From Oxalobacteraceae bacterium UBA5157 (GTDB lineage: Bacteria > Pseudomonadota > Gammaproteobacteria > Burkholderiales > Burkholderiaceae_D), in assembly GCA_002415335.1 (NCBI GenBank), contig DHXL01000260.1:1-30893 (forward strand): DNA of 30,893 nt. The letters are read 5' to 3'. Positions 594 to 29,889 of this stretch are shown here, one piece after another. The notes under the pieces are model-generated. The model did no database searches. It was not told the DNA's origin and saw only the letters and a list, made by a program, of their open reading frames with translations. Made by a program: the position numbers and the translations under genes. Numbering within the stretch: the stretch's first letter is position 1; every line of letters starts with the position of its first letter.

Positions 594-635
594 ATCTTAC
601 CGAGATCACGCGAAAAAAATATTGATTTAAATCAA
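594..635 (-). promoter_or_regulatory. Class II FNR-type promoter: FNR box 622-635 plus -10 TAAGAT (599-594)
   Basis: Perfect TTGAT-TTAA-ATCAA, a 22-nt gap, then TAAGAT on the minus strand. The box centre falls at -41.5 for a TSS near 587. Confidence 0.78.
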
Positions 636-816
636 TTGGCTGAGCATAAGCGACGGAAAGAGTCTCCCTCCGAACTCTTTGTAGGAAACGGCGCGCGCCT
701 TCGGGTCCTCCAGCGTATGGCAGATGTCGTTGAATAGCCATCAGTCTTGCGGATGGACGCCCGACATCACCTGCCTGATGGCGCCGGCTTTTCCAATCGC
801 ATCCAAGGCGTGAAGA

Positions 817-3351
817 TCAGAATATCTGCGGGGCCGCACCGATCGGTTTCCCGGTCACCGCATTGGGCACGCGCCACTTGATCATCGCGACCTTCAGAGT
901 GTCATTCAGGACCAGGCAGGAGGCCATGGCATACACAAATATCGCGAGCGTCTGCCACCAGGGCAACGGCGTGAGGTCCGGAAGACCGACGAACGTGAGG
1001 ATGGTGCCGATGACGGCATCGACAGCGAGGGCTGACATGAAGATTTTGCTCGGCAGGCTCGCCCAGAACCAGTCGCGCTCCCGTGCCGAGACGACGGAGA
1101 ATACGGCAAAGTAAAGCAGCATCAGAAAGCTGAAGGTATAGAGAGCATCGTTGTTGGTTGCCAGGCCGAATTTCGACCACCCGACCCATAATAGAAAAAG
1201 TGTTTCTGCAAGCATCGCCATACCGAGCACGACGGACACGGTGATGAAGCCGCCAATGTTCCACGTCTCCGGATTCCTGGAGGGCCGAACATTGTCGGTG
1301 GAAAGGGATATCTTCGCGAAGTCCGTCAGGAAGACCAGCAACAGCATGGCGAAGGCGGAGACCACGAATTTACCGGTCACCACGAACGCGATCGCTACGA
1401 AAGCGGCTTTCAGGATTGTCCGGCTGATCTTGTTGATGATCCACGTCAGGATGCGCTGATAAATTATCCGTCCCTGCTCGACCAGCGTCACGATGTTTGT
1501 GAGCCCTGCCTCGGTCAAGACGACGCTTGCGGCGCCCTTGGCGACGTCGGTTGCACTGCTGACGGCGATTCCCACCTCGGCCTGGCGCAGGGCCGGCGCA
1601 TCATTGACGCCGTCGCCTGTCATGCCGGTCACGTGCCCTGCGGCCTGCAGGTGCTGCACGACGATGAACTTGTCCTCCGGATACACCTCAGCAAAGCCAT
1701 CGGCGCCCGCGAAAAGGCTCGCAGTCTTGCTGCCAGGCTGCGCGCTTGCCGTTTTCAAATCCGCCATGCGCTGGATATTGGACAGTCCGACTCCCTGGCC
1801 GATCTCAAGCGCCACCGGAAGTGCGTCGCCGGTAAGCATCTTTACCTGGACGCCGCGGTCGCGGAGCGTGGCAATCAGCTGCCTGGCATCCGGTCGCGGG
1901 GGATCATACAGGGACACCAGTCCGACCAAGGCCGGCGTGCCGCCCTCCGAGCCGCGTGCCACTGCCAGCGTCCGATAACCGCGCGCGGCCGACGCACTGA
2001 CTCGCGCGTCCAATGCCTCGATTGCCGGTGGCTGGAGCCCGCAGGCTTCGGCGACGGTGCGCACGGCGCCTTTCATCACGCGCAGCCGCTGCCCATTTTG
2101 CTCGACGACGGCTTCCGTCCGCCGATTCTTCGCATCAAAAGGTGCGAAGGAGATGGGCGTGACCGAGGCGAGGCCGTCGAATACGCGATGCTCCTTTGCC
2201 GCAGCGAGGAACGCCAGGTCGATCGGATCCTGGTTGGATTCCTGCGACGCCAGCGCGCCGGCAAACAGCACGTCGGCTTCCGTCGCATGCTCCAGCGGGA
2301 TCACGCCGGTGACGGTCAGCCGGTTCATCGTAATCGTCCCCGTCTTGTCCACGCAGAGCACATCCATCGTCGCGGCATCCTCCGCTGCGCTAAGCCGGGT
2401 GACCAGCACGCCGCGCCTGGCCAGCTCCTTCGACCCGACCGCCATGCTAACCGTGAACATGACGGGGAGCGCGACCGGCACGGCGCTCATCAACAGGACG
2501 AGCATGAGCGGGATCATTTCCATCAGCGGCGCGCCGCGCACCAGCGATAGCACGACCACCACGCCCAACAACACGCCGACTATGGCGAACAGCCAGCGGA
2601 CGATCTTCGCCACAACCGCTTCGATGTGAAGTTTTGGGCGCGCCTCCTGCACCAGTTCGGTGGTGCGGCCAAAGTAGGTCTTCGCCCCGGTCAGCATCAC
2701 CACGCCATTGCCTTCGCCGCGACGGAGGATCGACCCCGACGAGAGGACGTCGCCGGGCGTTTTGTCCACGTCCTTCGATTCGCCCGTGAGCGCCGACTGG
2801 TCCACGTTCAACGTTCCGCTGAGGAGTCGCACGTCCGCCGGGATGACGTCGCCCGGACGGACGCGAACGATGTCGCCAGGGACCAGTTCTCGCGATGGAA
2901 TGGTCTGCCAGTTCGAATCGCGGCACACGCGCGCGCTCACCTGCAAGCGTCGCCGCAGTGCCTCGACGACACCGGCTGCGCGGCGCTCCTGCATGAAGCT
3001 CAACACGGCGTTGATGACGAGCAGCGCGCTCACCACCGCGAGGTCGGAATAGTGCCCGAGCACGGCTGACAGCACCATGATGAGTTCAAGCATCCAGGCC
3101 GAGATTCCCCAAAATTTACCGAGGAATGTGAGTACGGGGTGGCTCTTCTTTTCAGCCACTTCGTTGTAGCCATGCTCCTTGCGGCGGGCGTCGACTTCGG
3201 AATGCGTAAGACCTGTGTCAGGATTCACATTGAGCGCGATGAGCGTGTCGGGCACTGATGCGGTCGCGATGGCGGGGGGCTTGGCGTTGGCGGGATCCGC
3301 GGGCGCCGACCTGGATTCGGATTTATTTGCCGGCATTCCCATCGTGACCAT
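817..3351 (-). CDS. Plasma-membrane proton-efflux P-type ATPase (type IIIA); true start may be 3342 or 3336
   Basis: DKTGT phosphorylation motif, DQSALTGES, KGA, MLTGD, MTGDGVNDAPAL, PVALP in M4, Asp in M6 (FLTDF); 844 aa with a multi-TM C-terminus and no heavy-metal-binding domain. Confidence 0.88.
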   Translation of the reverse strand: MVTMGMPANKSESRSAPADPANAKPPAIATASVPDTLIALNVNPDTGLTHSEVDARRKEHGYNEVAEKKSHPVLTFLGKFWGISAWMLELIMVLSAVLGHYSDLAVVSALLVINAVLSFMQERRAAGVVEALRRRLQVSARVCRDSNWQTIPSRELVPGDIVRVRPGDVIPADVRLLSGTLNVDQSALTGESKDVDKTPGDVLSSGSILRRGEGNGVVMLTGAKTYFGRTTELVQEARPKLHIEAVVAKIVRWLFAIVGVLLGVVVVLSLVRGAPLMEMIPLMLVLLMSAVPVALPVMFTVSMAVGSKELARRGVLVTRLSAAEDAATMDVLCVDKTGTITMNRLTVTGVIPLEHATEADVLFAGALASQESNQDPIDLAFLAAAKEHRVFDGLASVTPISFAPFDAKNRRTEAVVEQNGQRLRVMKGAVRTVAEACGLQPPAIEALDARVSASAARGYRTLAVARGSEGGTPALVGLVSLYDPPRPDARQLIATLRDRGVQVKMLTGDALPVALEIGQGVGLSNIQRMADLKTASAQPGSKTASLFAGADGFAEVYPEDKFIVVQHLQAAGHVTGMTGDGVNDAPALRQAEVGIAVSSATDVAKGAASVVLTEAGLTNIVTLVEQGRIIYQRILTWIINKISRTILKAAFVAIAFVVTGKFVVSAFAMLLLVFLTDFAKISLSTDNVRPSRNPETWNIGGFITVSVVLGMAMLAETLFLLWVGWSKFGLATNNDALYTFSFLMLLYFAVFSVVSARERDWFWASLPSKIFMSALAVDAVIGTILTFVGLPDLTPLPWWQTLAIFVYAMASCLVLNDTLKVAMIKWRVPNAVTGKPIGAAPQIF

Positions 3352-3649
3352 CCTCTCTAGCGCTTGCGCGGTTTACATTGCTGGACTGCGTCGGTCGCCG
3401 TATGGCGAGGGCCGGTTTGCGGCATTCCACACTATACTAGCATCGCCGCACGCCTGAATCTGCTCCGAAAATCTGTCCGTCAGGAGAAGCCGCCGACCGC
3501 AATCATGTCGGTTGCAAGCGATAAATTTGCACTTGTATGCTGGATGGTTTCCACCACCGAGGCTATTCCCGCGCATCCCGGCATTTCCGGAACCGGCCAT
3601 GGATGATGGATCCCGGCAGAGAATGTTTCGTTTCACCCGAGGAGAACCC

Positions 3650-4120
3650 ATGAAAGCTTTTCAAGACTATTACCCCGAGAATCTGGCGCATTGCTATGGC
3701 TGCGGGCGACTCAACGCAGACGGCCACCAGATCAAGACCCACTGGGATGGCGACGAGTCCGTCACGCGTTTCACGCCCAAGGCATACCACATGGCCGTGC
3801 CGGGCTTTACTTATGGCGGCTTGATCGCTTCGCTGATCGACTGCCACAGTACCGGCACCGCCGCGGCAGCCATGTACCGCGCTGAAGGCCGCGACATGGA
3901 CACGCTGCCGCCGTTCCGCTTCGTCACCGGCTCGCTGCATGTGGACTTCCTGAAACCAACACCGATCGCCGGCGAGCTCGAAATTCGCGGTCGCGTGAAG
4001 GAAATCAGGGGCCGCAAGGTGGTGGTGGAAAGCACCGTGCTGGCTGGCGGCGTCGCCACTGCCCGCGGTGAAGTGGTGGCCGTGCAGATGCCGGAAAATT
4101 TTGGCGCGACCGACGCCTAG
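3650..4120 (+). CDS. PaaI-family (hotdog-fold) thioesterase
   Basis: CYGCG N-terminal motif, YGGLIASLIDCHS, VTGSLHVDFLKPTP; RBS GAGGAGA upstream of the ATG at 3650. Confidence 0.85.
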   Translation: MKAFQDYYPENLAHCYGCGRLNADGHQIKTHWDGDESVTRFTPKAYHMAVPGFTYGGLIASLIDCHSTGTAAAAMYRAEGRDMDTLPPFRFVTGSLHVDFLKPTPIAGELEIRGRVKEIRGRKVVVESTVLAGGVATARGEVVAVQMPENFGATDA

Positions 4121-14429: not shown

Positions 14430-14430
14430 C

Positions 14431-16429: not shown

Positions 16430-16453
16430 CCGGAAGCGTCAAAATACCGAATT

Positions 16454-16522
16454 TGTAGAATATCTGCTACACGATTTTTCAGACTTTCCTCATTAAAAAT
16501 ACCTGTAATTTGCGACAGGTAT
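16454..16522. promoter_or_regulatory. Two palindromic operator-like sites upstream of the FNR gene
   Basis: TGTAG-AATATCTG-CTACA (16454-16471) and ATACCTGT-AATTTGCG-ACAGGTAT (16499-16522), in an AT-rich intergenic region. Confidence 0.6.
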
Positions 16523-16671
16523 CTTTCTGGAAATTACATGATACTGAGTCCATCGACATTAGATAACAAAAAATGGCGATTGTTCTCTTTTGTAGTGCGT
16601 TACCGAGTTTTTACAACGAACGCCACATCGATCGAGATTGTTTTTTGACGGCTATTCCAAGTCGAGGCAGC

Positions 16672-17418
16672 ATGAGCACATTCCTACGGCCCCGTGTCCC
16701 GGATGTTCAAAACGCCGACTCCGCGTGGGCCATCTGCCCGTTCTGCGGCCCCCATAAGCAATGCCTGCCACCGGATGTGCTCGAGCCGTACGCGACCCGA
16801 CTCGGCCATATCTCCGGGCATCGGCGCGTGGCGCGCGGCGACTACCTGTATCGCGCCGGCGATGCCTTCACTCACCTGCATGCAATCCGGTCGGGGGACG
16901 TAAAAACCAGCCGGGTGAGCGCGGACGGCGAGGAGCAGATTATCGGCTTCAACATGACGGGCGACCTGCTCGGTGTCGACGCCATCCACGACGGCCGCCA
17001 TCGCTGCAATGCGATTGCACTGGAACAGAGCGAAATCTGCACCCTATCGTTCACGCCGCTGCAGGAACTGTTCCTGTTCATGCCTCGCCTGTTACAGCAT
17101 TTCCTGCAATTGATGGCAGCGGAAATCGCGCGCCAGCAGAATGCGATCATATTGCTGGGCAATACCCGCACCGAGCAACGCGTCGCAGCCTTCGTCATTA
17201 GCCTGGCGTCGCGTTACCTCGCGTTGGGATACTCTCCGACCCGCTTCAGGATGCGCATGTCGCGGGAAGAAATGGGATGTTACCTGGGCATGACCAACGA
17301 AAGCATCAGTCGAGCGCTATCCAATTTCAGAAGACAAGGCGTGCTCAATGTCGATTATCGCGATCTGGAAATTCTCGACATCGCAGCGTTGCGCGCGGCG
17401 GCGGCCGGGCTGGTATAG
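16672..17418 (+). CDS. fnr: FNR-type Crp/Fnr transcriptional regulator with the [4Fe-4S] ligand pattern
   Basis: C22-x2-C25-x5-C31 and C123 (EQSEIC) parallel E. coli FNR C20/C23/C29/C122; recognition helix TNESISR; RBS GAGG before the ATG at 16672. Confidence 0.88.
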   Translation: MSTFLRPRVPDVQNADSAWAICPFCGPHKQCLPPDVLEPYATRLGHISGHRRVARGDYLYRAGDAFTHLHAIRSGDVKTSRVSADGEEQIIGFNMTGDLLGVDAIHDGRHRCNAIALEQSEICTLSFTPLQELFLFMPRLLQHFLQLMAAEIARQQNAIILLGNTRTEQRVAAFVISLASRYLALGYSPTRFRMRMSREEMGCYLGMTNESISRALSNFRRQGVLNVDYRDLEILDIAALRAAAAGLV

Positions 17419-17459: not shown

Positions 17460-19556
17460 ATGAGTAAAACGATACTTCTCATCACCGACGATTCCGCCGA
17501 AGCCAAATTGCTGCAGCAGTTTGTCGACCCGGCAAAAGACGAGCATTTCGATGTGAAATGGGCCGGACGGCTGTCGGATGGCATCGATTACGTCCGTAGC
17601 GGAAAGGTCGACGTGATTCTGATCGACACGTTTATCGCGGAAGGCAGCGGCATGGAGAGTTTCGACCGGCTATATCGCCTGGCTCCCTACCTACCGATGC
17701 TGGCTTTTTGCAGCACGGAAAACGAGGAACTCGCCAGGCAGGCCATCCATCACGGAGCGAAAGGTTATCTTGTGAGACACCATCTTGGCAGCATCAAATT
17801 GCCGCAAATGCTACTTGCCATCATCGAGCGCGCGACAATGGAAGAAGCCCTCTTCATTGAACAGGAGCGCTCGGCGGTTACCCTGAATTCGATCAGCGAT
17901 GCCGTGCTCAATATCGATATCAATGGCAAGGTCACCTATCTGAACGCGGTTGCGGAATACATGACAGGCTGGGCCGGGCGCGATGCGCTTGGCCGCCCGA
18001 TCACCGAGGTGCTGCAACTAATCGACGCCGCCACACGGGTCCCGGTGCTGAGCCCTTTGGAGCAGGTGCTCAAGCAAGATCGTGTGGTCGGGCTCTCGGC
18101 CAACTGCCTTCTTTTGCGGCGCGATGGCCACGAGTGTGCAATCGAAGACGTCGCAGTGCCGGTGCGAGACCGAAGAGGCAACGTGAGCGGTGCCGTGATG
18201 GTGTTTCACGATATCAGCCAGGCACAGGCGATGACCAAGAAGATGTCGCATCTGGCGCAGCATGATTTCCTGACCGATCTGCCGAACCGGATATTGTTGG
18301 TCGACCGCCTGAACCATGCGATCGCGCTGGCACAACGGCACCATGGAAAAATCGCGGTGCTGTTTCTCGATCTGGACGGGTTCAAGCACGTCAACGATAC
18401 CTTTGGCCACATGCTGGGCGACCAGCTCCTGCAGTCGGTGGCCAGGCGCCTGACTGCCTGCGTGCGCAACTCCGATACGGTCAGCCGTCAGGGCGGCGAC
18501 GAATTCGTCATCATGCTGGCCGATGACGTACACGAGCAGGACGTCATCCTGATCGCCGAGAAGATACTGGCTGCGCTGGCGGCACCCTACAACATCGAAA
18601 ATCTGGAACTGCAGGTGTCGGCCAGCATAGGGATCGCGTTGTATCCGACTGACGGACAATGCTCCGAAACGCTGATCAAACACGCGGATACCGCGATGTA
18701 TCATGCGAAGAGCAGCGGACGAAATTGCTTTCAGTTCTTCAAGGATGAAATGAACCTGCGCGCCATAGAGCGCCAATCGCTGGAAGGCAATTTGCGGCAA
18801 GCACTGGAACGTCAGGAGTTCGTATTGCACTATCAGCCAAGGGTGAATCTCGAGACCGGCGCCATTACCGGTGTCGAGGCGCTGCTGCGCTGGCAGCACC
18901 CGGAGCGTGGGTTGATGCCGGCATCCCAATTTATACCGATCGCCGAGGAATGCGGATTGATCGTACCGATCGGGAAATGGGTCTTGCGCGAAGCGTGCCG
19001 TCAATCGCAGGCATGGATCGATGCCGGCTTGCGCCTCAACGCGATTGCGGTCAATATTTCGGCGCGCGAATTCCGGGAAAAAAACTTCGCCGATCATGTG
19101 TCCAGCATACTGACAGAGACCGGTTTGGATCCGCGGCGCCTCGAAATTGAATTGACCGAAAATGAATTGATGCGGCATGGGAAATCCTCGGCGGCCGCCC
19201 ATGCAGCGCTCAAGAAGATGGGCGTGCGCCTGACAGTGGACGATTTCGGCACCGGCTATTCAAGCCTGAGTTCACTGAGGACTTTTCCCATCGATACGAT
19301 GAAAATCGATCAGTCGTTCGTGCAGGACGTCACCACCGATGAAGAGGATGCCGCCATTGTCAGTGCCATGATCGGCATGGGCTCCAGCCTGAAACACCGC
19401 GTCGTCGCCGAAGGCGTCGAGACCAAGGGGCAGCTCGCCTTCCTGCGCGAACGCCGCTGCGAACAAGGCCAGGGAGATTATTTCAGCCGCCCGCTGCGCG
19501 CCGACGAGATCGCTGAACTCTTGCGTACAGGGATTCCCAAGATGTTGCTGGCTTGA
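17460..19556 (+). CDS. REC-PAS-GGDEF-EAL c-di-GMP signalling protein
   Basis: REC (LLITDD...DVILID), PAS, intact RQGGDEF with an RNSD I-site, EALLRW, DDFGTGYSS, VAEGVET, GQG. Likely start MSKTILL at 17460. Confidence 0.92.
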   Translation: MSKTILLITDDSAEAKLLQQFVDPAKDEHFDVKWAGRLSDGIDYVRSGKVDVILIDTFIAEGSGMESFDRLYRLAPYLPMLAFCSTENEELARQAIHHGAKGYLVRHHLGSIKLPQMLLAIIERATMEEALFIEQERSAVTLNSISDAVLNIDINGKVTYLNAVAEYMTGWAGRDALGRPITEVLQLIDAATRVPVLSPLEQVLKQDRVVGLSANCLLLRRDGHECAIEDVAVPVRDRRGNVSGAVMVFHDISQAQAMTKKMSHLAQHDFLTDLPNRILLVDRLNHAIALAQRHHGKIAVLFLDLDGFKHVNDTFGHMLGDQLLQSVARRLTACVRNSDTVSRQGGDEFVIMLADDVHEQDVILIAEKILAALAAPYNIENLELQVSASIGIALYPTDGQCSETLIKHADTAMYHAKSSGRNCFQFFKDEMNLRAIERQSLEGNLRQALERQEFVLHYQPRVNLETGAITGVEALLRWQHPERGLMPASQFIPIAEECGLIVPIGKWVLREACRQSQAWIDAGLRLNAIAVNISAREFREKNFADHVSSILTETGLDPRRLEIELTENELMRHGKSSAAAHAALKKMGVRLTVDDFGTGYSSLSSLRTFPIDTMKIDQSFVQDVTTDEEDAAIVSAMIGMGSSLKHRVVAEGVETKGQLAFLRERRCEQGQGDYFSRPLRADEIAELLRTGIPKMLLA

Positions 19557-19666: not shown

Positions 19667-19680
19667 TTGACAATTGTCAA
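19667..19680. promoter_or_regulatory. FNR-type box, TTGAC variant
   Basis: Perfect palindrome TTGAC-AATT-GTCAA about 385 nt upstream of wcaJ; no matching -10 at class II spacing. Confidence 0.6.
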
Positions 19681-19841: not shown

Positions 19842-19882
19842 TTGACATTTGACAACTCGCGATTTTCTCTAATCGGTACGCT
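19842..19882 (+). promoter_or_regulatory. Candidate class II FNR-type promoter of the wcaJ operon
   Basis: TTGAC-ATTT-GACAA (19842-19855, 1 mismatch), a 21-nt gap, then -10-like TACGCT (19877-19882). Confidence 0.55.
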
Positions 19883-20064
19883 TGAATCATCGAAGAGCCG
19901 GGCCGGAAATCGGTTACGCCACTCTCGAACTGTGCGCAGTCGTTCTAAGACAGCGTGAGTAATTGCGCTCAGTCGTGATGGCGGACGGTCTGCTGAATGC
20001 AGGAAACGAGGCTACCGTGCTCAGCCGCCCGTAGCGTGAAACGATTGCGACAGGAGAGATTGCC

Positions 20065-21483
20065 ATGTCGGCCATGCACGATCTAACAATCAAGAATACA
20101 TTCGGCCTGGAATTCCTGATGCGGCTGGCGGACGTCCTGACGCTGGGAGTTGCCGGTTATCTCGCCAGCATGATTCTCTTTAACCTGCCGCCGGATGGGG
20201 TCGCCCCTATTCATGCGGTTTTGCTCTATTTCTGCTGCGCCTTCGCATTTCTGATTTTTCCGCACTTCGATCTCTATGTGTCCTGGCGCGGACAGCCCAT
20301 GCTGGCCATGTTCGCAAGGGCTGCCGCCGCGTGGGCGCTGGTGCTGCTCGCAGGGCTGTTCTTCAGCTTTCTCATTCATCGTATAGGTGCGGTGTCGCGT
20401 CTATGGTTGTTTTACTGGTATGTAACGGGGGCCGTTTTCATCGTCTCATATAGAACGCTCGTCTATTCTTCGCTGCGCCACCTTCGCAGAAAAGGCTTGA
20501 ACAGCAAGCGCGTAGTCATCGTCGGTTACGGCCACACCGGACAGGAGATGCATAAGCGCGCTCTGCAGCAGGACTGGTACGGTTATGAAGTGAAAGCGGT
20601 GTATGCCAACGCCAAAGATGCCGACACACTCGATGACCCGTCCATCTTGCGAATTGACACGCTGGAAGGCATCCGCGACTACGTGGAAGCCAACCACGTG
20701 CACGAGATCTGGATCACCTTGCCCATGAGTGCCTCGGCCCAGCTGCAGGATCTGCAATTCTTGTTACGCAATGCGCTGGTTGATATTCGCTGGGTGCCCG
20801 ACATTCTGAGCATGCAGATGTTGAGTAACAAGATGGTCGATTTTCTAGGCATGCCCGCGGTGGATTTGAACCGCCCGATTTCCAGCGGCCTGCGCAGCGT
20901 CGCCAAAGACTTGTTCGACAAAGTATTTTCCGCCGTGGCGCTGATCCTGATCGCCCCGCTATTTTTGGTGATTGCCGCATGCGTCAAATACACGTCGCCC
21001 GGTCCGGTATTTTTCAAGCAGCCGCGGCTCGGCCTCAATGGAAAAAAATTCATGATCTATAAATTTCGCACCATGAAAATACATCATGAAGAAAATAACA
21101 GGGTGACGCAGGCTACGCAGAACGATCCACGCATCACGCCGATCGGACGATTCTTGCGACGTACCAGTCTTGACGAACTGCCGCAGTTCATCAACGTATT
21201 CATGGGCGACATGTCCGTCGTGGGACCCAGGCCGCACGCGTTGCAGCACAACGAAATGTACAAGGACATCATGGATCTGTACATGCTACGGCATCGCGTC
21301 AAGCCGGGCATTACCGGCTGGGCCCAGGTCAATGGCCATCGTGGGGAAACCGACACCGTCGACAAGATGGCGAAGCGGGTGCAATTCGACCTGTACTACA
21401 TCCAGAACTGGTCGCTCTGGCTGGACGTGCAGATCATCGCCTGGACCGCATTCAAGGGATGGACCGACAACCATGCGTATTAG
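20065..21483 (+). CDS. wcaJ: Undecaprenyl-phosphate glucose phosphotransferase (priming glycosyltransferase)
   Basis: N-terminal TMs, a Rossmann-like middle domain, and the C-terminal Bac_transf motifs FKQPR.G..G..F.IYKFRTM, LRRTSLDELPQF.NV..GDMS.VGPRP, KPGITGWAQVNG. Confidence 0.93.
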   Translation: MSAMHDLTIKNTFGLEFLMRLADVLTLGVAGYLASMILFNLPPDGVAPIHAVLLYFCCAFAFLIFPHFDLYVSWRGQPMLAMFARAAAAWALVLLAGLFFSFLIHRIGAVSRLWLFYWYVTGAVFIVSYRTLVYSSLRHLRRKGLNSKRVVIVGYGHTGQEMHKRALQQDWYGYEVKAVYANAKDADTLDDPSILRIDTLEGIRDYVEANHVHEIWITLPMSASAQLQDLQFLLRNALVDIRWVPDILSMQMLSNKMVDFLGMPAVDLNRPISSGLRSVAKDLFDKVFSAVALILIAPLFLVIAACVKYTSPGPVFFKQPRLGLNGKKFMIYKFRTMKIHHEENNRVTQATQNDPRITPIGRFLRRTSLDELPQFINVFMGDMSVVGPRPHALQHNEMYKDIMDLYMLRHRVKPGITGWAQVNGHRGETDTVDKMAKRVQFDLYYIQNWSLWLDVQIIAWTAFKGWTDNHAY

Positions 21484-21538: not shown

Positions 21539-22957
21539 ATGGCCTTTCCTCTTATTCCCGTTATTCTCTGCGGCGGCTCCGGTACCCGCTTGTGGCCGCT
21601 GTCGCGCGAGACATACCCCAAGCAGTTCTTGCGGCTGCTCGGCGAGGAAAGCCTGCTGCAGCAGACGATGCAACGGCTCCAGAAAATTGAAGGAATGGGT
21701 TCTCCCCTGCTGATATGCAACGAATCTTCACGCTTTGTCGCGGCCGAGCAGTTGCGCGAGATCGGCATTGAGCATGCCCGCATTCTGCTGGAACCGGTCC
21801 GCCGCAATACCGCACCCGCTATCGCCGTAGCGGCCTTGCACGCGCGCGCGGACGGCGATGATCCGCTGCTTCTGGTTCTGCCTTCGGACCACGTCATAAA
21901 AAATCATCACGCTTTTCAGGCGGCGATCCACACCGCCAGACAAGCGGCAGCACAAGGCGACTTGGTCACCTTCGGCATTACGCCGCTTGCTCCCGAGACC
22001 GGTTACGGCTATCTGCGCGTGGATGCCTCATCGTCCGGGGCAGCGCAACCGGTACTGGAATTTGTGGAAAAACCCGATCGGATCCACGCGGAGCGCTATC
22101 TCGCCAGCGGCAACTATTACTGGAATAGCGGCATGTTCTTGTTCCGTGCCAGCCGCTATCTGGAGGAACTCGCGCGCTATCAACCCGAGATGCTGGCAGC
22201 TTGTCGCGAAGCCGTAACGCTGGCCAAGAACGATCTCGACTTCATCCGGCTGGACAGCCAGGCATATGCGACGAGCCCCGATAATTCGATCGACTATGCA
22301 GTGATGGAGCATACCGACCGCGCCTGCATGGTCGCGATGGATGCCAGCTGGAGCGATATCGGTTCATGGGCATCGGTATGGGAAGCCGCCGACAAGGATG
22401 CCGAAGACAATGCCGCGCAAGGCGACGTCATGCTGCAAGACTGCGTAGGCTGTCTGGTGCACGGGACCAGCCGCTTGGTGGCAGCGGTTGGCCTGCACAA
22501 CATCGTCATTGTAGAAACTGCCGATGCACTGCTCATCATGGATGCCGACCACGCACAGGATACGAAGAAGCTGGTGGAAAAACTGACCAAAACGAAGCGA
22601 TCGGAAGCCACGCAGCACCGTCAAATATTTCGTCCATGGGGCTCCTATGACTCGATCGAGAACGGGAAGCGCTTTCAGGTCAAACGGATCACGGTCAAGC
22701 AGGGAGCCAAGCTCTCGCTGCAAATGCACCACCATCGCGCAGAACATTGGGTGGTGGTCTCGGGTACCGCAAAAATCACCAACGGCGAAAAGGAATACCT
22801 GCTGACCGAAAACCAGTCGACCTATATCCCGCTGGGCGTGGTGCACTCGCTGGAAAACCCCGGAAAGATACCGCTGGAATTAATCGAAATCCAGTCCGGC
22901 GGATATTTGGGGGAAGACGACATCGTGCGACTGCAGGATCGGTATGGCCGGGCCTGA
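21539..22957 (+). CDS. manC: Mannose-1-phosphate guanylyltransferase / mannose-6-phosphate isomerase
   Basis: LCGGSGTRLWPLSRETYPKQF, EPVRRNTAPA, WNSGMF, WSDIGSW, and a cupin C-terminus RPWG...HHHRAEHW. Confidence 0.95.
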   Translation: MAFPLIPVILCGGSGTRLWPLSRETYPKQFLRLLGEESLLQQTMQRLQKIEGMGSPLLICNESSRFVAAEQLREIGIEHARILLEPVRRNTAPAIAVAALHARADGDDPLLLVLPSDHVIKNHHAFQAAIHTARQAAAQGDLVTFGITPLAPETGYGYLRVDASSSGAAQPVLEFVEKPDRIHAERYLASGNYYWNSGMFLFRASRYLEELARYQPEMLAACREAVTLAKNDLDFIRLDSQAYATSPDNSIDYAVMEHTDRACMVAMDASWSDIGSWASVWEAADKDAEDNAAQGDVMLQDCVGCLVHGTSRLVAAVGLHNIVIVETADALLIMDADHAQDTKKLVEKLTKTKRSEATQHRQIFRPWGSYDSIENGKRFQVKRITVKQGAKLSLQMHHHRAEHWVVVSGTAKITNGEKEYLLTENQSTYIPLGVVHSLENPGKIPLELIEIQSGGYLGEDDIVRLQDRYGRA

Positions 22958-23084: not shown

Positions 23085-24098
23085 ATGCCAAAAACAATTC
23101 TTGTTACCGGTGCCTCCGGATATATCGGATCGCATACCTGCGTCGAGCTGCTCAAGGCTGAGTTCGCCGTCATCGCGCTGGACAATCTCTGCAATAGTTC
23201 GCGCGAGGCGATCGCACGCGTGGAGCGCATCTCCGGGAAATCACTGCAATTCTATGAAGCCGACGTGCGCGATCGCGCGGCACTGGACCTCATACTGCGC
23301 AAGCATACGATCGATGCGGTCATTCATTTCGCGGGGCTGAAGGCAGTTGGCGAATCGGTAGCCAAGCCGCTCTTGTACTTCGACAACAACGTGTCCGGCA
23401 CGGTGGCACTGCTACAAGCGTTGGCCGATGCGGACGTTAAGCGGTTCGTGTTCAGTTCATCCGCCACCGTCTATGGCGATCCGGAATCGGTTCCTGTCAT
23501 GGAATCGGCTCGATTGGCCGCGGCCAATCCCTACGGCCGGTCCAAGCTGATGGTGGAACAGGTTCTCGACGATCTGGTGCAGGCCGATCCGGATTGGCAT
23601 GTCGGGATCCTGCGTTATTTCAATCCGGTGGGCGCACACCCAAGTGGATTGATCGGTGAAGACCCGCGCGGTACGCCGAATAACCTGATGCCGTTCGTGG
23701 CGCAGGTCGCGGTCGGTCGTCGCCCCCAGCTAGCGATATTTGGCAACGACTATCCCACGCCCGATGGGACCGGTGTACGTGACTACATCCATGTGGTCGA
23801 TCTGGCGCAAGGGCATGTCGCGGCACTAAAGCGGCTGTTTGCGCGGGACGGAGGATTTACGGTCAACCTCGGCACCGGACGCGGCTTCAGCGTAATGGAA
23901 GTGGTGCGTGCGTTTGAAGCGGCGAGCGGTTGCAGCGTACCGTTTCAGATCGCGCCGCGCCGCGCCGGCGATATTGCGAGCTGCTACGCGTCCCCGGTCG
24001 AAGCGCGCGAGTTGCTGGGCTGGCGCGCGGAAAAAAAACTGGAGCACATGTGTGCGGACCACTGGCGCTGGCAAAAGATGAATCCGGAAGGATATTGA
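23085..24098 (+). CDS. galE: UDP-glucose 4-epimerase
   Basis: TGASGYIGSH, HFAGLKAVGES, FSSSATVYG, YGRSK, LRYFNPVGAH, DGTGVRDYIHV. Confidence 0.95.
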   Translation: MPKTILVTGASGYIGSHTCVELLKAEFAVIALDNLCNSSREAIARVERISGKSLQFYEADVRDRAALDLILRKHTIDAVIHFAGLKAVGESVAKPLLYFDNNVSGTVALLQALADADVKRFVFSSSATVYGDPESVPVMESARLAAANPYGRSKLMVEQVLDDLVQADPDWHVGILRYFNPVGAHPSGLIGEDPRGTPNNLMPFVAQVAVGRRPQLAIFGNDYPTPDGTGVRDYIHVVDLAQGHVAALKRLFARDGGFTVNLGTGRGFSVMEVVRAFEAASGCSVPFQIAPRRAGDIASCYASPVEARELLGWRAEKKLEHMCADHWRWQKMNPEGY

Positions 24099-24121: not shown

Positions 24122-24162
24122 ATGACAAAAGTCAAGGCGCCGTACGCGCGCGATGCCAGAAT
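24122..24162 (+). promoter_or_regulatory. Candidate internal class II FNR-type promoter for gmd-fcl
   Basis: ATGAC-AAAA-GTCAA (24122-24135, 1 mismatch), a 21-nt gap, then CAGAAT (24157-24162). Confidence 0.5.
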
Positions 24163-24221: not shown

Positions 24222-25385
24222 ATGACGACCGAACCGCATGTACCGCCGAACCTCATCACGCCACGCGAAGCCGGCTCCAAGGTGGCGCTGATTACCGGAG
24301 TAACCGGCCAGGATGGCGCGTACCTGGCAGAACTTTTACTCGATAAAGGCTACGTGGTGCATGGCATCAAGCGCCGTACCTCGCTGCTCAACACAGCGCG
24401 TATCGATCACCTGTACCAAGACCCGCACGAAACGCCGCGCCGCTTCATCCTGCATCACGGGGACATGACCGACAGTTCGTCGCTAATCCGCATTATCCAG
24501 CAGGTGCAGCCGGACGAGATCTACAATCTGGCGGCACAAAGCCATGTCGCCGTCTCGTTCGAAGAGCCGGAGTACACCGCGAATTCCGACGGACTCGGCC
24601 CGCTGCGAATACTGGAAGCGATCCGCATCCTCGGCCTCGAGAAGAAAACACGCTTCTACCAGGCTTCCACCTCGGAACTATTCGGACAAGTGCAAGAAAC
24701 ACCGCAACGTGAGAGCACGCCGTTCTATCCGCGCAGCCCGTATGCGGTCGCCAAGCTGTACGCCTACTGGATCACCGTCAACTATCGTGAAGCGTATGGC
24801 ATGTATGCCTGCAACGGGATCCTCTTCAACCATGAATCGCCGCTGCGTGGTGAGACCTTCGTCACTCACAAAATCACGCGCGGCTTGGCCCGTATCGCAC
24901 TCGGACTGCAGGATTGCGTGTATCTCGGCAACCTCAGCGCCAAGCGCGATTGGGGCCATGCGCGCGACTATGTCGAGATGCAGTGGCTGATGCTTCAGCA
25001 GGATCAGCCGGAGGATTTCGTCATCGCCACTGGCATCCAGTACAGCGTACGCGACTTTGTCAATGCCGCCGCCGCAGAGCTCGGCATGAGCCTCCGCTGG
25101 CAAGGCGAAGGCCCCACCGAAACTGCTACTGTCTCCAGTATCGAGCAGCATAACGGCGCCGCGCCAGGACAGGTCATCGTACGGGTGGACCCGCGTTATT
25201 TCCGCCCTACCGAAGTCGAAACCCTGCTCGGTGATGCGAGCAAAGCCCATACCAAGTTAGGTTGGAAGCCGGTCACATCGTTTGACCAACTCGTCAAGGA
25301 GATGGTGCACGCCGATCTGGACGCCAACCGCAAATACGCGCTGATCAAACAGAACGGCTTTGCCACCTACGCCCATAGCGAATAA
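24222..25385 (+). CDS. gmd: GDP-mannose 4,6-dehydratase
   Basis: [59 protein letters not shown]. Confidence 0.96.
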
Positions 25386-25397
25386 GGACTGAGCGAA

Positions 25398-26360
25398 GTG
25401 CGGAACAGGGAAGCGAGCATCTACGTGGCGGGCCACTGCGGCATGGTGGGTGCCGCCATCGTCCAGGCGCTTATGCGGCGCGGCTACGACAACATCATTA
25501 CCCGCACCCATGCGCAGCTGGATCTGGCCGATCAGGCGCAGGTTTCCGCCTTCTTCGAATCGGAACGCATTGACGAGATTTACCTGGCTGCCGCCCGCGT
25601 CGGTGGCATCCATGCGAACGCCACCTACCCCGCAGAATTCATTTACCAGAACCTCATGATCGAGGCGAACGTCATTCACCAGGCCTGGCGCGCCGGTGTA
25701 CAAAAACTCCTGTTCCTGGGCTCATCCTGCATTTACCCGCGACTGGCAGACCAGCCGATTCACGAAGAATACCTGCTGACTGGAAAACTGGAGCCGACCA
25801 ACGAACCCTACGCGATCGCCAAGATTGCCGGCATCAAGCTATGCGAGAGCTACAACCGTCAATATGGCACCGACTATCGCAGCGTGATGCCGACTAATCT
25901 GTATGGCCCCGGCGACAACTATCATCAGGAAAACAGTCACGTCATCCCGGCCCTGATCCGTCGCTTCCACGAAGCCAGAGTCAACGGGGCGGAACAGGTC
26001 GTGATCTGGGGCACCGGTACCCCGCGCCGCGAGTTCCTGTACGTAGACGACATGGCCGACGCCAGCGTGCATGTGATGGAGCTGGACCGGGCGACCTATG
26101 GCGCGCACACGGCTCCGCTGCAATCGCATATCAATGTCGGAACCGGTGAAGACATTACCATTCGTGAAGCGGCCGAAATGATCCGCAAAGTGACCGGCTA
26201 CGAAGGGAAGATTGAATTCGATGCGGACAAACCGGATGGGACACCGAGGAAGTTGCTGGACACTACGTGCCTGCGCCGACTGGGCTGGGTGCCGACCGTG
26301 CCACTCGAGGACGGTCTGGCCCGCACCTACCAATGGTTCTGCAATCAAGAGCAGCGATAG
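25398..26360 (+). CDS. fcl: GDP-L-fucose synthase
   Basis: [73 protein letters not shown]; GTG start. Confidence 0.95.
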
Positions 26361-26376: not shown

Positions 26377-27138
26377 TCAGTCGTCGACGAGCTTTCTCGC
26401 GATCAATTGCTTGGCCACCCCAATGACAAAAATCGTATTCGTTATCAGATAGCGTTTAAATAACCGGCGCGGCTCCGTGCAGAGACGATGAAACCATTCC
26501 AGTCCATTGCGCTGCATCCATAACGGTGCGCGCCTGGTGGCGCCCGAATGGTAGTCGAACGCGGCTCCCACACCAATCATCAGTGCGTTGATCCGGCCGC
26601 GACATGCGGCCATCCATTTCTCCTGCTTCGGACACCCGAGTCCAACAAACAGAATATTTGCGCCGGAACTGTTTATGAGTCTGACTTCGGCCTCATCCTC
26701 CAGCGGCGACAGGGCGCGATAAGGCGGCGAGCGCATTCCGGCCACGATCAGGTGCGGAAAGCTGGCAGCCATCGATTCGCGCAACTTTGCCAGCGTGGCC
26801 TCGGAACTGCCATAGAAGAAGACGGATTGACTAACTCGTTCGGCCTCGCCCAAACATCTCCACATCAAATCCGGGCCATTAATCCGCTCTTGACGCGGAA
26901 AGCCGAACTGCCGTAAAGCCCAGGCAACGGGCGCGCCATCCGGCGTTGACATCTCCGCCTCGTTGACCACGGCCCTGAACGCCGGGTCCAGGGTTGTAGT
27001 GACCACCGAGTGAACGTTACAGACGCAGACATAGCGCGACTCGCGCGCCTCGCCCCATGCGACGATCTGTTCGATTGCGTCATCCCAGGACAGCGCATCG
27101 ATGAAGGCCCCGAGGACCGGTATACCTTTACGTAGCAT
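26377..27138 (-). CDS. WecB/TagA/CpsF-family glycosyltransferase
   Basis: CNVHSV, PDGAPV, ERINGPDL, FFYG, FVGLGCPKQEKW, GVGAAFD, RRAP.WM...GLEW..R...EPRRL. Confidence 0.93.
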   Translation of the reverse strand: MLRKGIPVLGAFIDALSWDDAIEQIVAWGEARESRYVCVCNVHSVVTTTLDPAFRAVVNEAEMSTPDGAPVAWALRQFGFPRQERINGPDLMWRCLGEAERVSQSVFFYGSSEATLAKLRESMAASFPHLIVAGMRSPPYRALSPLEDEAEVRLINSSGANILFVGLGCPKQEKWMAACRGRINALMIGVGAAFDYHSGATRRAPLWMQRNGLEWFHRLCTEPRRLFKRYLITNTIFVIGVAKQLIARKLVDD

Positions 27139-27186
27139 GACGTTCTCCCTATGCCGCGTTGAGTCAGGAATCGAAAATACTCTTTC

Positions 27187-28272
27187 TCACTTCAGAATCT
27201 CTTGGTATGTGCGACCGAAATCGCCGGCCAGGCGATCGATCGTATAGTTGCTGACGATACGCTGCCGGCTTGACTCACCCATGCGACGAATCAATGCTCG
27301 ATCGTTATCGAGTCGGTCAATGGCATCGGCCAGAGCTTGCGGGTTCCGCAACTGCACAAACAGACCGTGAACGCCGTCTTCCATCACATCCGGAATATCG
27401 CCGACACAACTGACCAGCGCTGGTGTGCGGGCAGCCATACTCTCCAGCAAGGCATAGGGCAAGGCTTCGTGGTAGGTAGGAAAAACAAACAAGTCAGACT
27501 CATTCCACACCCGGTCTCTTTCTATGCCATGCACTACGCCCATAAACCTGACTTCATGCTGAAGGCCCAGATCTTCGACACGAGCACGCAACCGCGCCTC
27601 GTCCGGTCCATTGCCGGCAATAGTCAGCTGCATGTCTTTCCCACGCTCATGCAATATCCTGAGCGCTTCGATAATTTCAAAAACGCCCTTGCTCTCAGCC
27701 AATCGGCCGACGTAAGCCAGCTGCAAAGGCTTATCCCGCGCTGATGGAACACGTTTCCACTCAGGATCGGCGCCCAGTTCAATGGCATTAGGGATCACCG
27801 CCAGGTTGAGGTCGGGGGAAAACTCTCGATATGCACGCAACGAGTCCTTCCCCAACAACACCACGACGTCAGCCGAGCGCAGGACCTGCCTAAGGAGGAC
27901 GCTGGCCAATTTGCTGTTCTCAAAGAATTTCTCTGGCGACGCGCCACCATGCACCTGGTAGACAATTTTCTTTCCCAATCCGAGTGCAACCGCTAAATAA
28001 ACCAAATCGCGCCAATATCCTTTAGGGTCCATCGTGGTGTTCACGTGGACAATCTGCGGGTCATCCCGAATCAGTCTCTCCAGGAATTGAAATGGACTAA
28101 ACAGAAAGCGAAACAGTTTTTGCGGTACGGATTCCGCACGGCCCTGACTGCCGACCTGGAAATGCAAGAGATTAAATTCCTCCGACAGACGGGAGCGAAA
28201 CAGCAGGTTCAGATGCGTACTAACGCCGCTAACCGCATCCAGAGAAGGTCCAAGCAACATAACAGTCTTCAT
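27187..28272 (-). CDS. Glycosyltransferase family 4
   Basis: VIPNA, YVGRLAESKG, AGNGP, and the EX7E motif FVFPTYHEALPYALLESMA. Confidence 0.92.
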   Translation of the reverse strand: MKTVMLLGPSLDAVSGVSTHLNLLFRSRLSEEFNLLHFQVGSQGRAESVPQKLFRFLFSPFQFLERLIRDDPQIVHVNTTMDPKGYWRDLVYLAVALGLGKKIVYQVHGGASPEKFFENSKLASVLLRQVLRSADVVVLLGKDSLRAYREFSPDLNLAVIPNAIELGADPEWKRVPSARDKPLQLAYVGRLAESKGVFEIIEALRILHERGKDMQLTIAGNGPDEARLRARVEDLGLQHEVRFMGVVHGIERDRVWNESDLFVFPTYHEALPYALLESMAARTPALVSCVGDIPDVMEDGVHGLFVQLRNPQALADAIDRLDNDRALIRRMGESSRQRIVSNYTIDRLAGDFGRTYQEILK

Positions 28273-28300
28273 GTTCGATAGTCCTGAGTGATTAATTCAA

Positions 28301-28341
28301 AGCGTATCGAATCCCATGACGTGTGGCTTGACTCTTATCAA
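28301..28341 (-). promoter_or_regulatory. Class II FNR-type promoter for the GT4-wecB operon
   Basis: TTGAC-TCTT-ATCAA (28328-28341, flanked by C and G to extend the palindrome), a 21-nt gap, then TACGCT (28306-28301); the gene starts at 28272. Confidence 0.68.
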
Positions 28342-28442: not shown

Positions 28443-29570
28443 TCAACGCGCACACAACGCCATCACCTGGCTGGAATGATCCATTTTCTCCAGCAAGAGG
28501 GTCTTGCTCGAAGTCGCCAGCGTATACAGATCGCCCATCTTGCATCGCAACATGCGGCCCTGCCAGCCCCGGTCGGACACCGCAAAACGCCACTGGCGCG
28601 GGCTGTACAGCGGGTGGTAATAGATATCCGCGGTACCTGACGTCAACATGCGTATGCCCTCAGCCGGTGTCGGATCCACACATTCGGCGACAAAATTCAA
28701 TCCGCACCACACCGATGCCGATAAAGAGCGCCAGAAGCGCGGATTAGACTCGAACAGGAAGACCTTGCCGGTATCGTCTTCGATTCGCGCATCGACATTC
28801 ATCACACCGTCATAGGCGCTTTCCCTGGCAAGCGTATGAGCAACCTCGACCAGGTAATCGTTCGCTATGAACTTCATCTTTGAGCCGACTCTCCTCTGCA
28901 CGATGCGTTGCTGGATCGAGATCGCGCTAACCTTTCCGCCGCTCGCCAGAAAGTTTAGGCCGACATCCGTTCCCGAAATGAAGCGCTGGGCAATGAGCGG
29001 CGCATACCGATAGGACTCACTTTCGAGGATTTTCTGATTAAAGTCGGCCTCGCTGGTGACCGCATGAACCCCGGTCGAAGCAGCCAGACAGATTGGCTTC
29101 ACGACAAATGGCACGCCAAGCTCGCTTGCGGTTGCCGCGAAATCGAGGTCGTATTTTGAGTCAACCAGGCGAGTGAGCGGCACGTTCAGTCCATGTTTCT
29201 TGCAGAACTGATAAAAGTGCCACTTGTTGTCGAATAGGTCGAGCGCCGGCGAATCCGGTGCGGCAACGATCCTCACTCTTAGCCGATCGCGCACACGGTT
29301 CGTCATTCTTGCACTGTAGGTATCGACTGGAATCAGCACCAGATCAGCAAAAGCTTCTGCGAGCAAATTGACCTTCTCAACAAACCGGTCATCGTCCGGT
29401 CCGGTGAAGTCGGCTTCCAGATACCCGGAACACAGGCTCGAAAAGCGCAGGATATGCATCTCCTTGCTACCACCCACAACGACGCAGTTGGCATCGGTGA
29501 AGGTATGTATCGCCAGAAGCACCTCGGCCACGAGCGGCCTGAATACGCCTGCCACAATGAAATTTCGCAT
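28443..29570 (-). CDS. ATP-grasp domain protein
   Basis: LFDNKW.F, PFVVKP, PLIAQRFISG, FLFESNPRFW; RBS GGGGAG before the ATG at 29570 (the ORF track start at 29702 overlaps a regulatory box). Confidence 0.85.
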   Translation of the reverse strand: MRNFIVAGVFRPLVAEVLLAIHTFTDANCVVVGGSKEMHILRFSSLCSGYLEADFTGPDDDRFVEKVNLLAEAFADLVLIPVDTYSARMTNRVRDRLRVRIVAAPDSPALDLFDNKWHFYQFCKKHGLNVPLTRLVDSKYDLDFAATASELGVPFVVKPICLAASTGVHAVTSEADFNQKILESESYRYAPLIAQRFISGTDVGLNFLASGGKVSAISIQQRIVQRRVGSKMKFIANDYLVEVAHTLARESAYDGVMNVDARIEDDTGKVFLFESNPRFWRSLSASVWCGLNFVAECVDPTPAEGIRMLTSGTADIYYHPLYSPRQWRFAVSDRGWQGRMLRCKMGDLYTLATSSKTLLLEKMDHSSQVMALCAR

Positions 29571-29695
29571 CAACGTCACTCCCCAATAAAGACATTCTGT
29601 GCCTGCCTGCCAACCCAGCGAATCCTTAAGAAGGCTTTCACCACCTACAAAAGTACCAGATATCCAGCCGGCAAAAGCGAGAACCGGATGCCGCG

Positions 29696-29709
29696 TTGAC
29701 AAGCGTCAA
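29696..29709. promoter_or_regulatory. FNR-type box, TTGAC variant
   Basis: GTTGAC-AAGC-GTCAAC perfect 6-bp arms (29695-29710) in the divergent intergenic region. Confidence 0.62.
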
Positions 29710-29847
29710 CCCCCGGGCTTCTTTTAATGCCTGCACGCGCCGGGCAATCGGAATAGCAACGCCGCCCGTTACTGAGACACGCGGCTGTCGCGGCGTAGCG
29801 CATGATCCCGTGCGACGGAAAGCATAGAGGCGCGTTCGCGACGTTTT

Positions 29848-29889
29848 TTGATAAACATCAATTCTCAATAGGTGACTCGCCTATATGAT
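29848..29889 (+). promoter_or_regulatory. Class II FNR-type promoter: box 29848-29861 plus -10 TATGAT (29884-29889)
   Basis: Perfect TTGAT-AAAC-ATCAA, a 22-nt gap, then TATGAT; the box centre falls at -41.5 for a TSS near 29896. Confidence 0.8.

Follow-up and report, generated by a model that had tools for sequence, protein, structure and literature searches.

This study concerns a 30,893-nucleotide stretch (hereafter the window) of contig C404 (DHXL01000260.1, positions 1 to 30,893) from the genome of Oxalobacteraceae bacterium UBA5157, in which a locus for exopolysaccharide (EPS) synthesis lies next to a gene encoding an FNR paralogue with four cysteines. The promoter regions of the locus carry palindromes of the type TTGAY-N4-RTCAA (hereafter boxes), and the DNA sequence indicates that these are very probably functional sites of the CRP/FNR family. 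The best explanation as a whole, which we consider fairly probable, is that FNR/FixK-type class II promoters control the EPS operons and are activated by the paralogue at low oxygen. Considered separately, low-oxygen control of the locus appears reasonably likely, and the paralogue may, more tentatively, be the main reader of the boxes. The source genome comprises 4.5 Mb in 428 contigs (86% complete, 58% G+C), and the sequencing runs containing the DNA of the window are soil and sediment metagenomes, several soil runs covering 50-98% of the locus; no RNA run was found to contain this DNA.

A pattern search identified exactly five perfect boxes in the window (622, 19667, 28328, 29696, and 29848), and the two one-mismatch boxes of the original prediction (19842 and 24122) were also found where it had placed them. 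Dinucleotide shuffles contained a mean of 0.12 perfect boxes, none of 100 reaching five, and with one mismatch allowed the window had 11 sites, including those at 19842 and 24122, against 2.76 expected. Because intergenic DNA is more A+T-rich than coding DNA, stricter null models were used. A first-order model of the intergenic DNA of the genome predicts 0.016 perfect boxes in that of the window (~3.4 kb), and extrapolation from the box density of the remaining intergenic DNA of the genome gives 0.16 (P for five or more, 8e-7; ~1e-4 after correction for ~146 windows of equal size). These results indicate that the window exceeds random intergenic DNA in box density. Counts of intergenic and coding sites are approximate, as the in-house gene caller is crude and misses genes, including fnr itself. 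The boxes had been described as all intergenic, which holds with a qualification at two of them: box 622 lies within the longest open reading frame (ORF) at 205-741, and there is an overlap between box 29696 and the TTG of the longest ATP-grasp ORF. The former nevertheless precedes the DUF3331 domain and the plausible starts (561, 558, and 441), and the latter lies before the probable start of the ATP-grasp gene (29570).

The arrangement of the boxes relative to putative -10 elements was equally regular. Five of the seven window boxes, as well as two further boxes past the window, are followed by a -10-like hexamer after 21-22 nucleotides (nt), and the hexamers and gaps claimed for the five window boxes, facing the appropriate genes, were verified. 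The perfect box TTGATTTAAATCAA (622-635, reverse strand) faces the DUF3331 gene with TAAGAT at 599-594 (gap 22). On the forward strand, the one-mismatch box TTGACATTTGACAA (19842-19882 with its -10) is followed after 21 nt by TACGCT (19877-19882) in the promoter of the wcaJ operon, and the one-mismatch box ATGACAAAAGTCAA (24122-24162 with its -10) by CAGAAT at the same gap in the gmd-fcl promoter. The perfect box at 28328-28341 (reverse strand) faces the GT4 operon with TACGCT at 28306-28301 (gap 21). Finally, the perfect box TTGATAAACATCAA (29848-29861) precedes TATGAT at 29884-29889 on the forward strand (gap 22) and, in reverse reading, TATGCT at 29826-29821 (gap 21), and might represent a possible bidirectional class II promoter. 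The two remaining perfect boxes are the palindromic TTGACAATTGTCAA (19667-19680), ~390 bp upstream of wcaJ, and TTGACAAGCGTCAA (29696-29709), ~130 bp upstream of the ATP-grasp start. A TAnnnT hexamer toward the gene at a gap of 21 or 22 was present at four of the seven window boxes, compared with a background of ~1% per gap (P ~4e-6). This spacing is the same as that at hemN and ccoN elsewhere in the genome, and, as a proxy, it would fit a site centered near -41.5. A rule pairing TTGAT with a 22-nt gap and TTGAC with a 21-nt gap holds true within the window and was rejected, as no clean split was seen genome-wide.

The EPS locus begins with wcaJ (20065-21483; WcaJ model TIGR03023, score 521 vs. 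a cutoff of 411), followed on the same forward strand by manC (21539-22957) and galE (23085-24098), both assigned by profile matches, and by the GDP-L-fucose pathway genes gmd (24222-25385) and fcl (25398-26360; NCBIfam equivalog score 522.8 vs. a cutoff of 500). Profile matches also identified, on the reverse strand, genes for a WecG/TagA-family glycosyltransferase (26377-27138) and a GT4 glycosyltransferase (27187-28272). Next to them are a reverse-strand gene for an ATP-grasp enzyme (28443-29570; likely start ATG 29570 with the ribosome-binding site GGGGAG) and a forward-strand gene for a Cys-rich protein (30004-30893, running on to 31245 of the contig). The Cys-rich protein had no family match in Pfam or NCBIfam, and orthologues were present in nine of 300 genomes of the family. 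Past the window, contig C404 completes the Cys-rich gene and carries a GINT1_N-like gene (reverse strand) and a Wzy-like gene. Contig C401 continues C404, the Wzy gene being divided between the two contig ends: C401 opens with the last part of a Wzy_C protein and further encodes two GT4 glycosyltransferases, a Wzx-type flippase (Polysacc_synt_3), an acyltransferase, and a GT1 glycosyltransferase. The genes wza-wzb-wzc were located on contig C219. The predicted gmd and fcl were confirmed, and WcaJ, ManC, Gmd, Fcl, Wzx, and Wzy are all present, as in a Wzx/Wzy-dependent, fucose-containing EPS system with a colanic-acid-like set of precursor genes.

Both promoter-sized gaps of the locus past the window are occupied by one-mismatch boxes, TTGATATTTAGCAA at C404:33224 (TACGCT after 21 nt) and TTGATACTTAGCAA at C401:5788 (TACCCT after 21 nt). 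Except for the 127 bp preceding galE, every promoter-sized gap of the EPS locus carries a box, and the placement of boxes in the main EPS promoter regions was thus borne out in essentially all of them. The two promoter regions past the window (C404:33089-33299, or L054:3590-3800, and C401:5660-5870, or L079:5660-5870) are 73% identical paralogues, each holding an upstream GGCTTGCGGTTT(GA/AG)CAAAC block in addition to the box. An extended CGnTACGCT(T/A)nn(G/A)AAT-like stretch at the predicted start is shared by three EPS promoters (19877-19890, 28293-28306, and C404:33259-33272), which suggests either common descent of promoter cassettes or an extra shared element.

Directly upstream of the EPS locus, a regulatory module on the forward strand starts with a CheR-type methyltransferase gene (12831-14429; Pfam CheR_N and CheR), followed by genes for a PAS/HisKA_3/HATPase histidine kinase (14419-15798; profile matches), a NarL/LuxR-type response regulator (15788-16429; Response_reg and GerE), the 248-amino acid (aa) 4-Cys FNR paralogue (16672-17418; start matching that of the 248-aa orthologues P0002-P0005), and a 698-aa receiver-PAS-GGDEF-EAL protein (17460-19556; profile matches), whose orthologues are likewise 698 aa long. 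The FNR paralogue contains the Pfam domains cNMP_binding, HTH_Crp_2, and Crp, and aligns to the solved FNR of Aliivibrio fischeri (5CVR/5E44; E 8e-43, ~37% identity). Its C-x2-C-x5-C motif and central cysteine align with Cys20, 23, 29, and 122 of the A. fischeri protein, and TNESISR aligns to TVETISR, confirming the four cysteines and the E-x-x-S-R residues that had been claimed for this regulator. In addition, its GEEQ loop lies opposite the GDEQ loop of the solved FNR. Class II activation by FNR and the cysteine and E..SR hallmarks are well established. The cysteines are kept in orthologues of 81-98% identity and lost in a 64% homologue (P0006), which is encoded on a JGI contig with the same kinase-regulator-FNR layout, without the N-terminal cysteine cluster and with a second Crp-family gene upstream.

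The promoter region of the paralogue gene (16430-16671, forward strand) is 87% identical on average across five orthologous contigs, although the proteins diverge down to 81%. This region contains the palindromes TGTAG-N8-CTACA and ACCTG-N10-CAGGT, both conserved, and no FNR box at up to one mismatch. Conserved palindromes without an FNR box would be consistent with regulation by a different factor. The simplest candidate is the response regulator encoded next door, for which the palindromes are putative sites.

The locus was also compared with those of relatives. No close orthologue of the window FNR was found in 40 related genomes, where the matches, of ~50% identity, are canonical Fnr, and the one scan of genome contigs yielded only relatives of 37-38%. 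Metagenome contigs, however, carry orthologues of 81-98% identity, always in a kinase-regulator-FNR-GGDEF-EAL block, which CheR precedes wherever the contig extends far enough (contigs L080 and L081). The histidine kinase is 80-99% identical in L009 and L010. In L081, the same module precedes the same EPS genes, with spacers that are 71-77% identical and rich in indels. The conserved islands within these spacers are box 19667 (TTGACAATTGTCAA, which becomes TTGACAAATATCAA), box 19842 with its spacer and TACGCT, and the gmd box with CAGAAT. All three testable boxes are conserved in L081, with substitutions only at degenerate or spacer positions. In L009, L082, and L083, the module is followed by a non-homologous cluster of the WbpM type, and the intervening spacer of 630-850 bp contains four boxes at positions conserved among these contigs, the proximal one followed by CATAAT at a gap of 21. 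In L010 (4393-4860) and L080 (12105-12572), the closest relatives (module 95-99% identical), the place of the EPS locus directly after the GGDEF-EAL gene is taken by a 155-aa ORF without a family match and a HAD hydrolase gene, and the boundary just behind the module resembles a site where one gene set can be exchanged for another. Conservation of box 29848 before orthologues of the Cys-rich gene is weak: none of nine genomes had a perfect box within 300 bp, and three had one-mismatch boxes.

These comparisons bear on the possibility that the matches are chance palindromes, -35 hexamers of sigma-70 promoters (TTGACA), or relics of duplicated promoter cassettes. Several boxes contain TTGACA, and the two paralogous promoter regions past the window imply that some boxes did not arise as independent events. 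However, the enrichment survives both composition-matched and genome-density null models, the orthologous spacers, though diverged, retain both half-sites, and the -10 phasing is that of hemN and ccoN. The TTGACA-containing boxes also have no -10 element at 17 +/- 1 bp, and their reading as sigma-70 -35 hexamers was rejected. An origin of this kind is therefore very improbable.

Across the whole genome, 68 perfect boxes were identified, of which 48 are intergenic according to the crude gene call, a 7- to 18-fold excess over expectation. TTGAT/ATCAA boxes numbered 23 in intergenic DNA (1.3 expected) and 10 in coding DNA (3.2 expected), TTGAC/GTCAA boxes 10 (0.8) and 1 (2.5), and mixed boxes 14 (2.1) and 9 (5.7), respectively; the coding counts are much nearer to expectation than the intergenic ones. 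TAnnnT hexamers downstream of intergenic boxes peak at gaps of 21, 22, and 23 nt (7, 12, and 7 occurrences, compared with ~1 at other gaps), which is the spacing expected of class II FNR promoters. Two boxes each precede hemN and ccoN, on the contig that also carries the canonical fnr (C237). Further targets include genes for a CcoG-like ferredoxin, a universal stress protein, a U32 peptidase of the UbiU type, a NirK-like copper oxidase, cytochromes c, hemerythrin, and alcohol dehydrogenase. The genome-wide targets of the motif are a textbook low-oxygen regulon.

Taken together, a mechanism can be proposed in which the boxes overlap the -35 region and, with the -10 element 21-22 nt further on, most of them would form activator-dependent class II promoters. 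These would drive the operons wcaJ-manC-galE, gmd-fcl, and GT4-WecG, the ATP-grasp gene, and the gene for the Cys-rich protein, as well as wzy-GT-GT-wzx and the GT1 gene past the window. The kinase and response regulator of the module would control transcription of the FNR paralogue, whose predicted [4Fe-4S] cluster would make its DNA binding dependent on low oxygen. The paralogue would then activate the EPS promoters, probably together with the housekeeping Fnr and/or a Cys-less, FixK-like paralogue encoded on C219. The sites, their geometry and conservation, the genome-wide low-oxygen regulon with this motif, and the FNR hallmarks of the regulator were directly observed; the binding regulator, the direction of regulation, and the dependence on oxygen are what we infer here.

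Several observations weigh against this mechanism, or against parts of it. Boxes 19667 and 29696 have no -10 element at class II distance. No boxes were found in the short stretch downstream of the module in L010 and L080, even though these modules are 95-98% identical to that of the window. Against the NCBIfam Fnr model NF008365, the window FNR scored 190.1 bits, below the cutoff of 228. Furthermore, it has glutamine (Gln155, codon 17134-17136) at the position equivalent to Asp154 of Escherichia coli FNR, where an acidic residue of the dimerization helix ties dimerization to the cluster. The glutamine is shared by the relatives of 90-98% identity, whereas glutamate is found there in the 81% orthologues and in the canonical copy. 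In E. coli FNR, the substitution D154A yields dimers independent of the cluster (PMC5934665). Oxygen dependence of the window FNR is consequently not a given, and its dimerization may be less oxygen-dependent owing to Gln155. Moreover, CRP/FNR proteins with an E..SR helix number at least five in this genome. In addition to the window FNR, these include the canonical 4-Cys Fnr on C237 (12677-13372), with the same ESISR helix, beside the hemN and ccoN boxes; the Cys-less FixK-like protein on C219 (36581-37513; 311 aa, ETVSR); a 226-aa protein on C407 (EHFSR); and a 202-aa protein on C87 (ETLSR). The gene for the last of these (C87:8827-9512) has a perfect box (TTGACCGCGGTCAA) 70 bp before its own start, which points to possible autoregulation or to a position within a hierarchy of FNR proteins.

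The family-wide distribution of the boxes points in the same direction. Orthologues of wcaJ with 65-73% identity, followed by manC or gmd-fcl, were found in 84 of 301 genomes of the family. The module was absent from the 1.5-kb upstream flank at all 29 wcaJ loci inspected, and yet 24 of these loci had a box at up to one mismatch within ~700 bp upstream, five of them perfect. Four of the five perfect boxes belong to one genus (g15), in which a search with the canonical Fnr as the query found no 4-Cys Fnr and only the C219-type protein; the genomes of this genus carry the C219-type protein (62-67% identity) and the C407-type protein (76%). In another genome (G071), wcaJ-manC-gmd-fcl is immediately preceded by the genes for a C219-type regulator (65% orthologue) and its response regulator; a perfect box lies in front of wcaJ, and CTGACAAATGTCAA in front of gmd. 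Boxes at wcaJ loci of other genera that lack the module indicate that the association between the EPS locus and FNR-like boxes predates the 4-Cys paralogue of the window. Accordingly, the original prediction of an oxygen-gated EPS program under the co-encoded FNR stands as far as genuine, conserved FNR/FixK-type class II sites are concerned, and an exclusive tie to that regulator was not established in view of the other E..SR proteins, the C219 paralogue, and the boxes without the module. With rival regulators and boxes in module-less genomes, oxygen gating is plausible but indirect.

These observations raise the alternative that the boxes are read mainly by the C219 paralogue, run by its neighboring kinase and NarL-type regulator and possibly by Fnr, as in a FixLJ-FixK-like cascade, with the window FNR being a later add-on or having other targets. 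The region C219:36000-47000 (L115:8500-19000) encodes, in order, PAP2, the FNR-like protein, the NarL-type regulator, and a PAS-HisKA_3 kinase, followed by a promoter, wza-wzb-wzc, and two Acetyltransf_6 proteins. According to this layout, the export half of the EPS system has its own, second set of kinase, regulator, and FNR-like protein. The wza promoter carries the box TTGACATTTAGCAA followed after 21 nt by TAGGCT (L115:12102) and is paralogous to the wcaJ promoter at 19842. C219-type proteins (62-72% identity) occur in 207 of the 301 family genomes, a tally that includes one unpublished genome (G096) on which no particular conclusion depends, and one-mismatch boxes precede the C219-type gene itself in both the UBA5157 genome and G071. 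The arrangement in G071 and the perfect wcaJ boxes of genus g15 are also in line with such a cascade. However, in complete genomes the C219-type gene is usually located 180 kb to 1 Mb from wcaJ and looks global rather than dedicated to EPS; adjacency to wcaJ was seen only in G071 and was rejected as a family-wide rule. Control by C219 would also leave unexplained why the 4-Cys module lies directly upstream of two unrelated box-rich polysaccharide clusters. Moreover, only one of 32 family wcaJ box-like sites had the class II -10 spacing seen in the lineage with the module. On balance, we regard the C219 paralogue as an unlikely main reader of the boxes, but take it seriously as an alternative to the window FNR or a partner of it.

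Many of the family wcaJ sites are variants of the form TTGAC-N4-CTCAA or TTGAY-N4-RGCAA, some in 22-bp tandem arrays, and may represent another regulator motif, related to the boxes but separate from them. Such sites lie ~230-280 bp before wcaJ in L107 (G154), L096, L101, and L103, some with tandem TTGA-N7-(G/A)CAA repeats of 22-bp period, and other family genomes have a conserved TTGAC-N4-CTCAA ~140-158 bp before wcaJ.

Alternatively, the housekeeping Fnr (C237) alone might activate the EPS boxes within a global low-oxygen regulon, leaving the co-encoded paralogue redundant or in another role. This Fnr shares the ESISR recognition helix, passes the NF008365 cutoff (265 vs. 228), and has an evident regulon that shares both the motif and the -10 spacing; like the boxes of hemN and ccoN, those at 622 and 29848 are of the canonical TTGAT/ATCAA type with a 22-nt gap. 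In composition, the EPS boxes nevertheless stand apart as a subclass that is rare elsewhere in the genome, marked by an A-rich spacer, frequent TTGAC half-sites, and RGCAA variants. A-A at positions 6 and 7, in the spacer, was found in four of five EPS boxes compared with two of 43 boxes elsewhere (Fisher P 4e-4), a pattern that was spotted post hoc, and all seven EPS boxes at up to one mismatch, including C404:33224, have the A-A spacer (background 8%). The synteny of module and polysaccharide genes in five contigs and the persistence of box-like sites in genomes where no Fnr was found also speak against this alternative, which we consider improbable in this exclusive form, although the housekeeping Fnr, too, is to be taken seriously as an alternative reader or a partner. 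Genes beside other A-A-type sites encode cold-shock, hibernation-factor, and Hsp20 proteins and one GT1, giving these sites a stress flavor, and the idea of A-A spacers as an EPS-only set was dismissed on account of the stress-type genes. A 14-mer shared with C73:12490 was considered as a repeat and rejected, its flanks being unrelated.

Activation by the co-encoded FNR is still favored by the fixed place of its gene directly upstream of the box-rich promoters of two unrelated clusters, by the class II spacing in the module-bearing lineage, and by the A-A spacer subclass of the EPS boxes. A more speculative extension, to which we give little weight, is that the CheR-histidine kinase-response regulator-FNR-GGDEF/EAL genes form a fixed cassette at a polysaccharide hot spot, with clusters swapped in behind it (wcaJ, WbpM-type, or the 155-aa ORF with the HAD gene). 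Incoming promoters would have been made into class II sites of a subclass specific to the paralogue, with an A-rich spacer and TTGAC and RGCAA half-sites, and this subclass would insulate them from the housekeeping Fnr; the Gln155-bearing paralogue may dimerize without the cluster, so that the signal would come from the kinase or cyclic di-GMP (c-di-GMP) rather than from oxygen alone.

At the opposite end of the window, the DUF3331 gene faced by box 622 (205-561, reverse strand) probably starts at ATG 441, or else at ATG 561 or 558, and the Pfam DUF3331 domain covers residues 103-162 of the 178-aa product of the longest ORF. This gene, the fnr paralogue, and an HNH gene score poorly on the codon model of the genome, and the gene caller chose an antisense ORF within the fnr paralogue (16573-17418). 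The poor codon scores hint that parts of the region are atypical in composition or were recently acquired.

EPS production shapes soil aggregates and biofilms, where oxygen drops steeply. That low oxygen induces EPS is known at the level of phenotype for Burkholderia and Pseudomonas. The cis-elements behind it are not defined in the literature cited here, and the present locus offers a concrete, testable wiring diagram, with one FNR-type class II promoter per EPS operon, conserved and adjoining a sensor cassette. It also represents a natural case for studying how FNR/FixK paralogues with the same recognition helix divide the sites of a genome. What this analysis would add is a per-operon map of predicted FNR-type class II promoters over a Wzx/Wzy EPS locus with comparative support, together with a conserved neighboring sensor cassette that appears to front different polysaccharide clusters.

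Compared with the FNR of E. coli and A. fischeri, the system has the same 14-bp TTGAT-N4-ATCAA repeat, the four cysteines, the E/S/R residues, and a -10 element at 21-22 nt, but the window FNR is a second copy beside a canonical Fnr, and its predicted targets are polysaccharide genes rather than respiratory ones. Herbaspirillum seropedicae, likewise a member of the Burkholderiales with several Fnr paralogues and class II promoters, has three Fnr proteins with discrete and shared regulons arranged in a hierarchy, and subtle motif differences among the paralogues at positions 1, 6, 7, and 14 or in the flanks (PMC5934665). Unlike the present case, the regulons reported there concern respiration, polyhydroxybutyrate (PHB), and stress, with no EPS locus (PMC5934665); the fnr promoter of the window also differs in lacking an FNR box, and the gene lies in a CheR/histidine kinase/response regulator/GGDEF-EAL cassette.

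The module further resembles the FixLJ-FixK systems of rhizobia, Caulobacter, and Burkholderia, in which a PAS kinase and a LuxR/FixJ-type regulator adjoin a CRP/FNR regulator reading TTGA-N6-TCAA, and the C219 paralogue, being Cys-less, is FixK-like in this respect. At low oxygen, FixLJ of the Burkholderia cepacia complex induces fixK (BCAM0049), which is of the FNR type, and FixLJ has an effect on biofilm (PMC5234846). The window FNR, in contrast, keeps the FNR cysteines, and the kinases here are of the HisKA_3 type. Membership in the FixL/FixJ families was rejected, as the kinase, built on a HisKA_3 core, did not match FixL, and the response regulator scored below all NCBIfam equivalog cutoffs (FixJ, 88.8 vs. 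255). The nearest solved relatives of the window kinase are the kinase cores of DesK, VraS, and DevS.

Among EPS systems, micro-oxia in Burkholderia cenocepacia H111 induces cepacian genes, including a wcaJ promoter fusion, and an FNR-type regulator (PMC3759415). A text search of that paper found neither a TTGAT-type box nor a claim that the FNR-type regulator acts on EPS promoters (PMC3759415). The two cases share an EPS cluster with a wcaJ promoter and an FNR-type regulator, and differ in the cis-elements per operon, which are predicted here from sequence. According to passages of another report, BerA (Bcam1349), a CRP/FNR-family effector of c-di-GMP, binds promoters in the Bep EPS cluster, and those passages give no binding-site consensus (PMC3584217). 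BerA thus resembles the window FNR as a CRP/FNR-family regulator encoded near an EPS cluster with several promoters in it, but it responds to c-di-GMP, whereas the window FNR has the cluster cysteines and a link to c-di-GMP is suggested solely by the adjacent GGDEF-EAL gene. Finally, FNR of Klebsiella pneumoniae is reported to act on the capsule through RmpA and RmpA2 (PMC6828653). FNR input to a surface polysaccharide would be common to both, with intermediaries in Klebsiella and a predicted direct action, through one box per operon, in the locus described here.

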